Below, piece after piece: positions 15,001 to 18,000 of a DNA stretch of 64,000 nt (positions are counted from its first letter, which is position 1; the number at the start of each line of letters is the position of its first letter). Location: NCBI GenBank assembly GCA_040901985.1, contig JBBDYC010000019.1:111770-175769 (forward strand). Direction: 5' to 3'. This stretch comes from Gemmatimonadaceae bacterium (GTDB lineage: Bacteria > Gemmatimonadota > Gemmatimonadetes > Gemmatimonadales > Gemmatimonadaceae). Made by a program: the position numbers.

Positions 15001-18000
15001 CCCGGTCCTGCGGACAACCTGGGAGTGGGCCAAGTCCATCTCGATGGCCATCATCCTCTTCCTCCTCGTCCGCGCCTTCCTCGTCGAGGCGTTCAAGATT
15101 CCCAGTGGATCCATGGAAGGCACGCTCCTGGTCGGCGATTTCCTCCTCGTGAACAAGTTGGTGTACGGCGCCGAGGTGCCGATCCTGCGGAAGCACCTGC
15201 CGGCGGTGCGCGATCCACGCCTCGGCGACGTCATCGTCTTCCAATGGCCGGAGGACCCCGAGAAGAGCTTCGTGAAGCGGCTGGTCGGCCTTCCGCACGA
15301 CACCGTGGAGATGCGACGCGGCGTGCTCTTCCGGAACGGCCGGGCGCAGCTGGAACCGTACGCGGTGCGCAGTGCCGCGGCTGGCGACCCGCCGAGCGAG
15401 GAGTTCCGTTGGCAGCGCGACTACGTCCCGCCGGCGGTGGACGTGCGGCGTTATCATCCGTCCCGCAACAATTGGGGTCCGCTGGTGGTTCCCGCCGACC
15501 ATTATTTCGTCCTTGGCGACAATCGCGACAATTCCAGTGACAGTCGCTACTGGGGCTTTCTTCCCGACACCCTGGTACGCGGCACGCCGATCCTGGTGTA
15601 TTACAGCTACGCGCCCGACAGTGGCCACGCCTTTGATTGGCTGACCCGCGTACGCTGGCAGCGGTTGGGAGAGTTGATCCGCTAGTGTTGGTCGAGTGAC
15701 GCGCGGGGGAGCTTACGCCCCGCTGCGCGACTCTGCACATTCCGCGAGTGAGCGGAGACGTACAACGCCGGGCGCGAGGTGGTATGGCGGGAGTCCAGGG
15801 CAGGCGACAGGGGTACGAGGAAGGCTCCCTCGACCAGTATCTGCGGGACATCAGCGTCTTTCCGCTGATTTCGCGCGACGAGGAGGTGCGTCTCGCCCAG
15901 CGCATCCGCGCCGACGACCAGGAGGCGCTCGACACCCTCGTCCGCTCCAACCTCCGATTCGTGGTCTCGGTCGCCAAGAAGTACCAGAATCAGGGCGTGT
16001 CGCTCTCCGACCTGATCAACGAGGGCAACCTCGGCCTCATCCGCGCCGCCCACAAGTTCGACGAGACGAAGGGCATCAAGTTCATCTCCTACGCCGTCTG
16101 GTGGATCCGCCAGGCGATTCTCCAGGCGCTCGCCGAGCAGAGCCGGATCGTCCGCGTGCCGCTCAACCGCGCGGGGACGCTCCACCGCATCGGCAAGCGT
16201 GCCAACGCGCTGCTCCAGGAACTGGGCCGCGAGGCCACCCACGCCGAGATCGCCGAGGGGATGGAGATCACCGAGGAAGAGGTCGCGAAGACGATGTCCA
16301 TCTCGCAGACCCACCTCTCGCTCGACGCGCCGATGGCGCCGGGCGAGGACAACCGCCTCCTCGACTACATCCCCGACACGCAGAGCGCCACGCCCGACGA
16401 GGAGACGTTCGAGAAGGCGCTCATTGACTCGGTGCACGAGGCGCTCGCCGGCCTCAAGGAGCGCGAAGCCAAGATCCTCCGGCTCTACTTCGGGCTCGAC
16501 GGCTCCGATCCAATGACCCTCGAGCAGATCGGCGCGGTGCTCAACATCACCCGCGAGCGCGTCCGGCAGATCAAGGAAAAGGCGCTCTCCCGGCTCCGGC
16601 ACGTCAGCCGCGCACGGGCGCTCGAGTCGTACCTCGGGTAGCAAACCGCAGCCCGACCGGCGAGCTTTCGGGGTACGATGCGGGTGCCGTGACCTCCCGT
16701 CTCCCCCTCACCTCTCCCCGCTGCCGTGGCCAAGGACGCTTCCTTCGACGTGACCACCGGCGTGAACCTCCAGGAGGTTGACAACGCCGTCAACCAGGCC
16801 TCCAAGGAGATCGCGCAGCGCTACGACTTCAAGGACGCCAAGCTGGCGACCGTCGAGTTCAAGCGCGCCGAGGGGTTGATCAAGCTCTCCAGCGACGCCG
16901 ACATCCGGCTCCGCGCGATGTGGGACATCCTCCAGTCCAAGCTCATCAAGCGCGGCGTCCCGGTGAAGAACCTCGACGCCGGCGATCCGACACCGGGTGG
17001 CGGCGACACCTGGCACCGCGACATCAAGCTCAAGCAGTCCCTCGACGGCGACACCTGCAAGCAGGTCGTCGCCGCCATCAAGGAGCGGAAATTCAAGAAG
17101 GTCCAAGCGAGCATCCAGGGCGACACCGTCCGCGTCGCCTCGCCAAGTCGCGACGAACTGCAGGCCGTGATGACGTTCCTGCGCGGGGAGGACTTCGGCG
17201 TCCAGCTCGACTTCGGCAACTACCGCTGACCCGCCCGTCTCCCCCCCCCCGCATCTCCCGCCCCCGATGAAGTTCTCGCTCGTCACACTTGGCTGTGACA
17301 AGAATACGGTGGACAGCGAGCGCTACCTCGCGCAGTTGCTCGACCACGGCGCGGTCGAGGTCGCCGACTTGGCGGACGCGGAACTGATCATCGTCAACAC
17401 CTGCGGCTTCATTGACGCCGCCAAGCGCGAGTCCATTGACGCGATTGTCGCCGCCGGCCGCCTCAAGTCCTCCGGGAGCGCCACCGCCGTCGTCGCGGTC
17501 GGCTGCATGGTCGAGCGCCACAAGGCGGAGATGGGCGAGGCGCTTCCCGAGGTGGACCTCTTTCTCGGCGCGTCGGAGACCGACCAGCTCCTCCCGCGGC
17601 TGCGCGAGCGCGGACTGGTCGGCGACCCGGTCACGCAGCATCCCGGCGTGCGGGTCCACGCCGGCGATACGCCGTTCGTGCGCTACCTCAAGGTGAGTGA
17701 GGGGTGCGACCACGGCTGCGCCTTCTGCGCGATCCCGCTGATGCGCGGCCGGCACCGCTCGTTTGCGCCCGACGAGATCGTGCGCGAGGCGCAGCTGCTC
17801 GAACTGCAGGGCGCGCGCGAGGTGAACCTGGTGGCGCAGGACCTGGCGCACTACGGCCGCGACCGCCGTGACGGGGTGCGGCTTCCGGAGCTCCTCGAGG
17901 CGCTCCTCCGCGAGACGTCCATTCCGTGGATCCGGAATATGTACCTCTATTCGGCTGGAATCACGCCGCGCCTGCTCGAGGTGATCGCCGGCGAGCCGCG

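Follow-up and report, generated by a model that had tools for sequence, protein, structure and literature searches.

In the crown class Gemmatimonadetes, rpoD has been cleanly deleted from between dnaG and the DUF164 gene, and a pre-existing family of short sigma factors was left behind. One of its members, here called A, is encoded at positions 15784..16641 on the forward strand of the window, by which we mean the whole 64,000-nucleotide stretch of DNA that was analyzed. Taken as a whole, our explanation that rpoD was displaced by short paralogues, with A sharing promoters with a second paralogue, B, is likely to be correct. Primary sigma factors are regarded as irreplaceable. A clean rpoD deletion, together with relatives that keep both genes, provides a testable route to the sigma factor of Bacteroidota, the origin of which is unexplained in those portions of the literature examined here. 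It also separates the steps: the paralogue came first, loss of rpoD next, and the TG tail of the promoters last, only in some lineages. The displacement of RpoD with living intermediates is new, while a promoter without the tail is already known from Chlorobaculum. Our literature search returned no paper on primary sigma factors of Gemmatimonadota or on a displacement of rpoD within the FCB group; Vingadassalom (2005, 2007) and older papers on Chlorobium sigma factors may already contain the statement that RpoD and the short sigma are not orthologues. A practical caution also follows, in that when the only sigma factor in a "99.97% complete" MAG is labelled RpoD, the label may be on the wrong gene.

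Protein, class and locus of sigma factor A

Gene A starts with ATG and encodes 285 aa. A Pfam search of this protein placed region 1.2 at residues 15-47, region 2 at 52-121, region 3 at 133-206, and region 4 at 220-273, and returned neither region 1.1 nor the non-conserved region (NCR), which bears out the initial annotation of a 285-aa protein with region 1.2 at residue 15 and both of these elements missing. Independent gene calling picked the same start, and the orthologue frames have an ATG yielding 284-291 aa. An alternative start, the GTG at 15748 (297 aa), was ruled out by these orthologue lengths. We also reproduced the earlier statement that A falls below the cut-off of every RpoD model (e.g., 264.6 bits for TIGR02393, against a cut-off of 354), and the RpoS model TIGR02394 likewise remained under its cut-off (256 versus 379 bits). 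Among the 19 matches to sigma-70 region 2 in the assembly, A was the sole sigma factor bearing region 1.2. The region 1.1 profile PF03979 had no match anywhere in the assembly, although it also misses 4 of 10 bacterial controls, and protein length is the stronger evidence for the absence of region 1.1.

The named loci closest to A belong to Gemmatimonadota. Over its core, A is 56% identical to sigma-ABfr of B. finegoldii, 44% to E. coli RpoD, and 39% to E. coli RpoS. Alignments revealed substitutions in regions 2.3-3.0 (FISYAVWWIRQ.IL and PLN) that are common to A and Bacteroidota. Family-wide changes of the short sigma factors in these regions comprise S428I, T429S, T432V, T440L, and H455N (E. 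coli numbering), and RERxRQ is kept in region 4.2.

According to excerpts of PMC6847099, PMC12632263, and PMC7366714, sigma-ABfr, the primary factor of Bacteroidota, has about 286 aa and, as does A, starts at region 1.2 without region 1.1 or NCR; the excerpt of PMC7366714 adds that Bacteroidetes lack a classical rpoD product. The two proteins share a clade, the 2.3-3.0 signature, the distance from TTG to TA in their promoters, and T at -8. They differ in that three paralogues per genome occur here versus one in each of G201-G203, and in that sigma-ABfr is a primary factor whereas A is a candidate for that role. Canonical RpoD/SigA (E. coli sigma70, B. subtilis SigA) has regions 1.2-4.2 and the RERxRQ of region 4.2 in common with A, and its promoters combine a TTG -35 box, a 17-bp spacer, and a -10 hexamer that ends 6-7 nt upstream of the start, as here. 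Unlike it, A has neither region 1.1 nor NCR, scores below TIGR02393, is not linked to dnaG, belongs to a separate clade, and occurs in a genome without enrichment of TATAAT. Group 2 sigma factors (RpoS, SigB) resemble A in having a short N-terminus, near-canonical promoters, coexistence with RpoD, and, to judge from its loss or degeneration in f6, part of f7, G495, and G499, possible dispensability in some lineages. However, A lies below the RpoS cut-offs and its family persists where RpoD is gone.

The gene stands in a conserved aldH-lepB-sigmaA neighborhood, all on the forward strand, and its locus is conserved from family f12 to f1. Upstream are aldehyde dehydrogenase (13342..14823) and signal peptidase I (Peptidase_S26; 14894..15685), the latter adjoining A in f1 and in f9-f12. 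Downstream follow a DUF520 protein (16726..17229), presumably YajQ-like, and a UPF0004/radical SAM/TRAM protein (17267..18658) that we take to be RimO-like. At 13330..13344 (forward strand), a TAGATT -10 box lies 6 nt ahead of the ATG start codon for aldehyde dehydrogenase. It belongs to a leaderless-type promoter from which lepB and A may be expressed as well, through putative co-transcription.

Loss of rpoD and origin of the short family

Across 201 genomes of the phylum, a tally that includes four unpublished genomes, TIGR02393 exceeded its cut-off in 15: both genomes of f9, 8 of 9 in f10, 2 of 3 in f11, and all three in f12. The ninth f10 genome fell just under (351 of 354 bits), and five of five further f9 genomes (two unpublished) passed. 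None of the 184 genomes of f1-f8, this assembly (G000) included, had a canonical RpoD by this model. PF03979 matched 6 of 151 phylum genomes, all of them in f11 and f12, in support of the earlier description of the class as being without a region 1.1 sigma factor. In f9, the long RpoD is shortened at the N-terminus, with region 1.2 at residue 57-58 and no Pfam match to region 1.1. Genomes bearing RpoD also hold an A orthologue (65-75% identity) and other short paralogues, except that A was not found in G495 and G499. A match on contig C43 of G113 scored 308 bits and lies in a 374-aa frame.

In each of 6 loci, the long RpoD is encoded after dnaG, and dnaG-rpoD-DUF164 is given as a widespread gene order in an excerpt of PMC3372290. 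In G000, dnaG ends 79 bp before a C4 zinc-ribbon gene, the same gene that follows rpoD in G002. This gene is flanked by dnaG in 6 of 6 RpoD-less genomes from six families, although such kin are not independent and sample one deletion event many times. The named relatives of the long RpoD are found in Glassbacteria, Eisenbacteria, and Krumholzibacteriia, which we take to be FCB-associated candidate phyla.

A 25-row tree with thin outgroup sampling (7 non-FCB rows) united A with the proteins of Bacteroides, Chlorobiaceae, KSB1, and Latescibacterota in an FCB short clade (100/99), and grouped the long RpoDs of f9-f12 (100/99) with E. coli RpoD. The same split between short and long proteins was obtained in a quick tree of the 74-row set, from which 12 redundant rows of paralogues and most loci of Bacteroidota had been omitted. 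Forcing the short and long sigma factors of Gemmatimonadota together was rejected (p-AU = 0.00014). By synteny, tree, and AU test, A is not descended from the dnaG-linked rpoD.

The initial annotation had invoked a loss of region 1.1. We favor loss of the whole rpoD gene instead, because RpoD and A coexist, the AU test rejects their common clade, and rpoD is cleanly missing from the dnaG locus, while A sits at a different locus. That A is nonetheless a native RpoD from which region 1.1 and NCR were lost would agree with A being the only region 1.2 sigma factor in the assembly and with the N-terminus of the f9 protein, which indicates that erosion of region 1.1 happens in the phylum; given the full RpoD found beside A in the same genomes, we consider this highly improbable. 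In a different history, a single loss of RpoD deep in FCB ancestry would have been followed by its reacquisition through horizontal transfer in f9-f12, and these families would then not be relics of an intermediate state. The appeal of this history is that, in the phyla to which G202 (Ignavibacteria), G204 (KSB1), and G205 (Latescibacterota) belong, canonical RpoD was found in none of 201, 61, and 30 genomes, respectively, such that vertical inheritance needs at least two independent losses. It is unlikely, though, in view of the long RpoDs forming one clade at the ancestral dnaG position and having named relatives in other presumably FCB-associated candidate phyla.

Under displacement of rpoD by short paralogues, A would be the ancestral member of a short group-1-like family common to Bacteroidota, Chlorobia, KSB1, and Latescibacterota, and this family existed beside the canonical dnaG-linked RpoD. 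Distribution and synteny show that rpoD was deleted from an rpsU-dnaG-rpoD-DUF164 operon in the ancestor of the crown class (f1-f8). The short paralogues would then have taken over housekeeping, since no other group 1/2 sigma factor remains. A wider version of this history is quite conceivable, at somewhat less than balanced confidence. In it, the primary sigma factor of Bacteroidota would come from a short paralogue family present beside RpoD in the FCB ancestor and not from a trimmed RpoD. Deletion of rpoD would have occurred at least twice independently (in crown Gemmatimonadetes, and in Bacteroidota, KSB1, and Latescibacterota), with deep Gemmatimonadota keeping both genes. In Gemmatimonadetes, the housekeeping role would have changed hands a second time when the newer B succeeded A, which decayed in f6 and f7, and the promoter consensus would have stayed fixed save for fewer TATAAT-type sites.

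Promoters of the short-sigma lineages

Independent calls of 2239 genes were used to scan this genome for promoters, with 30 dinucleotide shuffles as the control. Of 1127 upstream regions, 71 contained the bipartite motif TTG[AC]NN-N17-TANNNT, compared with 3.3 ± 1.4 after shuffling, closely matching the 74 of 930 against 3.1 reported initially. Counts fell to 22 and 18 at spacers of 16 and 18 nt, and to 0-10 at spacers of 10-15 and 19-24 nt. Tandem regions contained the motif 34 times in the sense and 5 times in the antisense direction, and it appeared in 3 of 176 convergent regions and upstream of 11 of 39 tRNA/tmRNA genes. In-frame ATG codons had a TANNNT peak 6 nt upstream (96 of 2520, versus 10 of 1520 for out-of-frame ATG), which marks about 200 predicted leaderless genes (~9% of genes).

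At 202 leaderless sites, the -10 box read TA(G/T)(C/A)TT; position -8 was T in 69% of them and A in 11%. The bases after the box were mostly TC, CC, or CG, with TG in 13 of the 202. Upstream regions were enriched in TA..TT (391 versus 118) and showed no enrichment of TATAAT (4 versus 3.9 shuffled). For TANNTTTG, originally counted as 15 against 8.5, the recount of 24 against 8.3 ± 2.4 makes the excess real but small. An extended -10 TG was not evident, as TG.TA...T (54 versus 31.8) was approximately in line with the general excess of TANNNT (710 versus 429). The resulting consensus, TTG(A/C)C-N17-TA(G/T)CTT, has a Bacteroides-like hexamer, no strong TG tail, and a clearer -35 box, and supplies a promoter model for a major phylum of soil and freshwater.

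Examples in the window include TTGCGT-N18-TATCTT (30262..30291, forward strand) before a gene starting MKADIHP, presumably ribosomal protein L31, and its divergent partner TTGACA-N17-TACCTT (30213..30241, reverse strand). Also on the reverse strand are TTGACC-N17-TACGTT (49317..49345), before a gene that we take to resemble ribosomal protein S6, and TTGCTC-N18-TAGCTT (60053..60082), before tRNA-Gln.

Bacteroidota loci were run through the same pipeline after dropping 12 of 64 as non-Bacteroidia or doubtfully labelled. In 289 low-GC regions, TTG preceded TANNTTTG 13 times versus 0.8 at 19 nt and 7 times versus 0.8 at 20 nt. The TTG-to-TA distance of 19-20 nt in Bacteroidota and 20 nt in this genome amounts to one register. 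Excerpts of PMC6847099 number the Flavobacterium element T-12, A-11, T-8, T-7, T-6, G-5, and excerpts of PMC12641261 give TTGCTA and TATCTT for B. thetaiotaomicron, with a TGC extension into the discriminator. Because the spacing matches and given this numbering, the "-33/-7" and "-35/-10" forms describe one geometry. The initial annotation had regarded the promoters as E. coli-like and not of the Bacteroidota kind, a contrast that fails on the flat TATAAT count, the prevalence of T at -8, and the common spacing; its test of spacers 19-21 was counted from the end of the hexamer and hence in the wrong register. Its TTG-N20-TA geometry without a strong TG tail in promoters of the class did hold up. 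This tail is where sigma-ABfr promoters differ, their TG extension (TANNTTTG) being near-invariant, whereas here it follows 13 of the 202 leaderless boxes and the -35 box is much clearer.

The tail-less box recurred with the spacing seen here in two RpoD-less genomes. In G205 (115 regions), it was found 24 times versus 1.2 at 20 nt, with the tail at 1 versus 3.3, and in G202 (80 regions) the counts were 14 versus 5.3 and 12 versus 14. Excerpts of bioRxiv 10.1101/172254 place SigA/RpoD of Chlorobaculum tepidum in a clade with Bacteroidetes and report a TSS-mapped TA[ATC][ATC][AT]T without a TTG tail, as here, where this pattern is enriched (249 versus 104). C. tepidum has one RpoD-type sigma factor, versus three short ones here. 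Unlike that report, the Chlorobiaceae MAG G201 has the TG tail (16 versus 6.3), albeit in a small sample of 41 regions.

We also compared families that retain RpoD. TATAAT was enriched upstream in their groups (22 versus 7.1, 15 versus 6.9, 6 versus 0.8, and 2 versus 0.8), whereas nine RpoD-less sets showed no such enrichment. Genome-wide TANAAT/TANATT counts were 167/137 in six f9 genomes (84/84 without the unpublished G497 and G498) and 234/373 in 19 RpoD-less genomes, a comparison of one family with its kin in which GC is not exactly matched. There is a modest coupling of RpoD loss to promoter change. A tight one is borne out only weakly, as T at -8 is dominant (46-68%) even in RpoD-bearing families.

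Region 1.1 is not a base reader, and group 2 sigma factors are without it. Since it reads no bases, its absence need not move the promoter. The claim that loss of region 1.1 is uncoupled from promoter type is in this sense expected, and has a precedent, but A never lost region 1.1. The motif itself is observed; the short sigma factors would be its readers, at many leaderless genes, because no other group 1/2 sigma factor is left and RERxRQ in region 4.2 matches the TTG box. Both T at -8 and the fact that no clear extended -10 is seen probably stem from the changes in regions 2.3-3.0. Two residues with a role in extended -10 recognition, H455 and E458, are replaced here. Given TATAAT, TAGCTT, and TATCTTTG templates, all members of the family would be expected to prefer T at -8. 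A and B most likely use these promoters jointly in this organism.

Roles of A and B

Genomes of the same genus carry three short sigma factors, A, B, and C. As the initial annotation stated, two paralogues fall in assembly gaps, B and C both mapping to contig ends of G000. B maps to the gap between the break at tRNA-Gly and the beginning of contig C4, beside a tRNA-Ala(GGC) that is likewise missing from the assembly, from which we infer that B is present in this organism. A B or B-like match (E ≤ 1e-100) was obtained in 27 of 27 f1 genomes, 55 of 56 in f2 (where five near-threshold matches are B-like paralogues or partial genes), 3 of 3 in f3-f5, 11 of 11 in f7, and 2 of 2 in f8. All five f6 genomes matched at a looser E ≤ 1e-85, and none of 16 f9-f12 genomes did at E ≤ 1e-100. 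Every family searched that is without RpoD therefore has B, and no family with RpoD does. Because B comprises 296 aa and its N-terminus is basic, the housekeeping factor of the class would be without region 1.1 whichever paralogue serves.

A was present in 26 of 27 f1 and 56 of 56 f2 genomes, and at E ≤ 1e-108 went undetected in all five f6 genomes and in 6 of 11 in f7. Only B- and C-type genes were found in the single-contig genomes G057 and G075, and the A locus of G054 and G095 holds a 36%-identical gene without most of domain 3. Across these four genomes, none with an intact A, TTGMC-N18-TANNTT outnumbered a wrong-spacer control 59 to 12. Core identity within f1 was 95-98% for B and 85-90% for A, and one f7 pair had 93% versus 67%; the two were level within f2 (A 90-100, B 83-100). 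Between families A was more conserved, at 79-81% versus 70-71% for f1-f4 and 67-73 versus 64-68 for f1-f7, in a comparison that omits 13 rows and two G013 paralogues that were not extracted. In RpoD-bearing genomes, A was also more conserved than the long RpoD (70-81% versus 67-70%). The paralogue identities given initially had been measured against A as the query and not against the paralogues' own orthologues.

The initial designation of A as the housekeeping sigma factor is therefore unproven, since B is the more conserved within f1 and some single-contig genomes keep the motif with A degenerate or not found. A narrower form, in which A is the housekeeping factor here and in most of the class by displacement, with B replacing it only in f6 and in some of f7, has limited but appreciable plausibility. 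A is single-copy at its conserved locus, has short branches roughly in family order, and is nearly universal in f1 and f2. Its sequence in regions 2.4-3.0 and 4.2 is the closest to sigma-ABfr, which argues that it is or was the main factor, and it surpasses B between families and the long RpoD where both exist. Conversely, A is the less conserved within f1 and f7, was not found in two RpoD-bearing and several RpoD-less genomes, and it is B, not A, that mirrors the absence of RpoD. Judged from these sequence comparisons, the case for B as the indispensable factor is evenly poised, A would be a doubtful candidate, and redundancy seems less probable still. Codon bias, a weak proxy, placed B at the 100th percentile and A at the 93rd to 99th in three f1 genomes, and B scored above A in 6 of 7 genomes and below it in G122.

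Predicted leaderless genes

Approximately 202 of the 2239 genes called genome-wide in the assembly holding the window (G000) carry the -10 pattern TANNNT only 5-8 nt ahead of the start codon, so their mRNAs are predicted from sequence to be leaderless. Within the window, for example, the motif lies close to a start codon at 4181-4196 and 13330-13344 on the forward strand and at 6578-6592 on the reverse strand. The same peak before starts was present in other genomes of the RpoD-less class and weak in the RpoD-bearing family f9, and none was seen in the other RpoD-bearing families (f10-f12).

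Erosion and loss of the long RpoD

The N-terminus of the long, dnaG-linked RpoDs was eroded by degrees across f9-f12. Pfam region 1.1 was detected in f11 and f12 but undetected in the f10 protein (L056; N-terminus 85 aa) and in those of f9 (L054 and L055; approximately 57 aa). In genome G057, the zinc-ribbon gene lies inside an 844-aa open frame immediately 3' of dnaG (G057:C1:367783), a possible in-frame fusion where rpoD was deleted.

Variation among the short sigma factors

An open but degenerate sigma occupies the locus of the window's short sigma-70 gene (A) in L293 (G095:C3) and L296 (G054:C1). It has 36% identity to A, and both the last part of region 2.4 and the greater part of domain 3 are missing from it. 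The two copies are 81% alike, so this gene could be an ECF-like derivative that has been maintained. Separately, G057, which is without A, has a tandem duplicate of the short paralogue B (L285/L290, G057:C1:3028301-3030464), and G016 and many genomes of f2 likewise carry additional B-like copies.

Assembly completeness and stray matches

The G000 assembly is rated 99.97% complete, but two sigma paralogues are missing. ARAGORN found no tRNA-Ala(GGC), tRNA-Arg(ACG), or tRNA-Val(GAC) in it, and several contigs end at tRNAs. Elsewhere, an RpoD-like match (308 bits, 374-aa frame) at G113:C43:947-1648, in a family otherwise RpoD-less, possibly sits on a contaminant contig. Bacteroidota-type short sigmas in records titled Bifidobacterium and Erythrobacter (L082 and L101) suggest that these are mislabelled bins.
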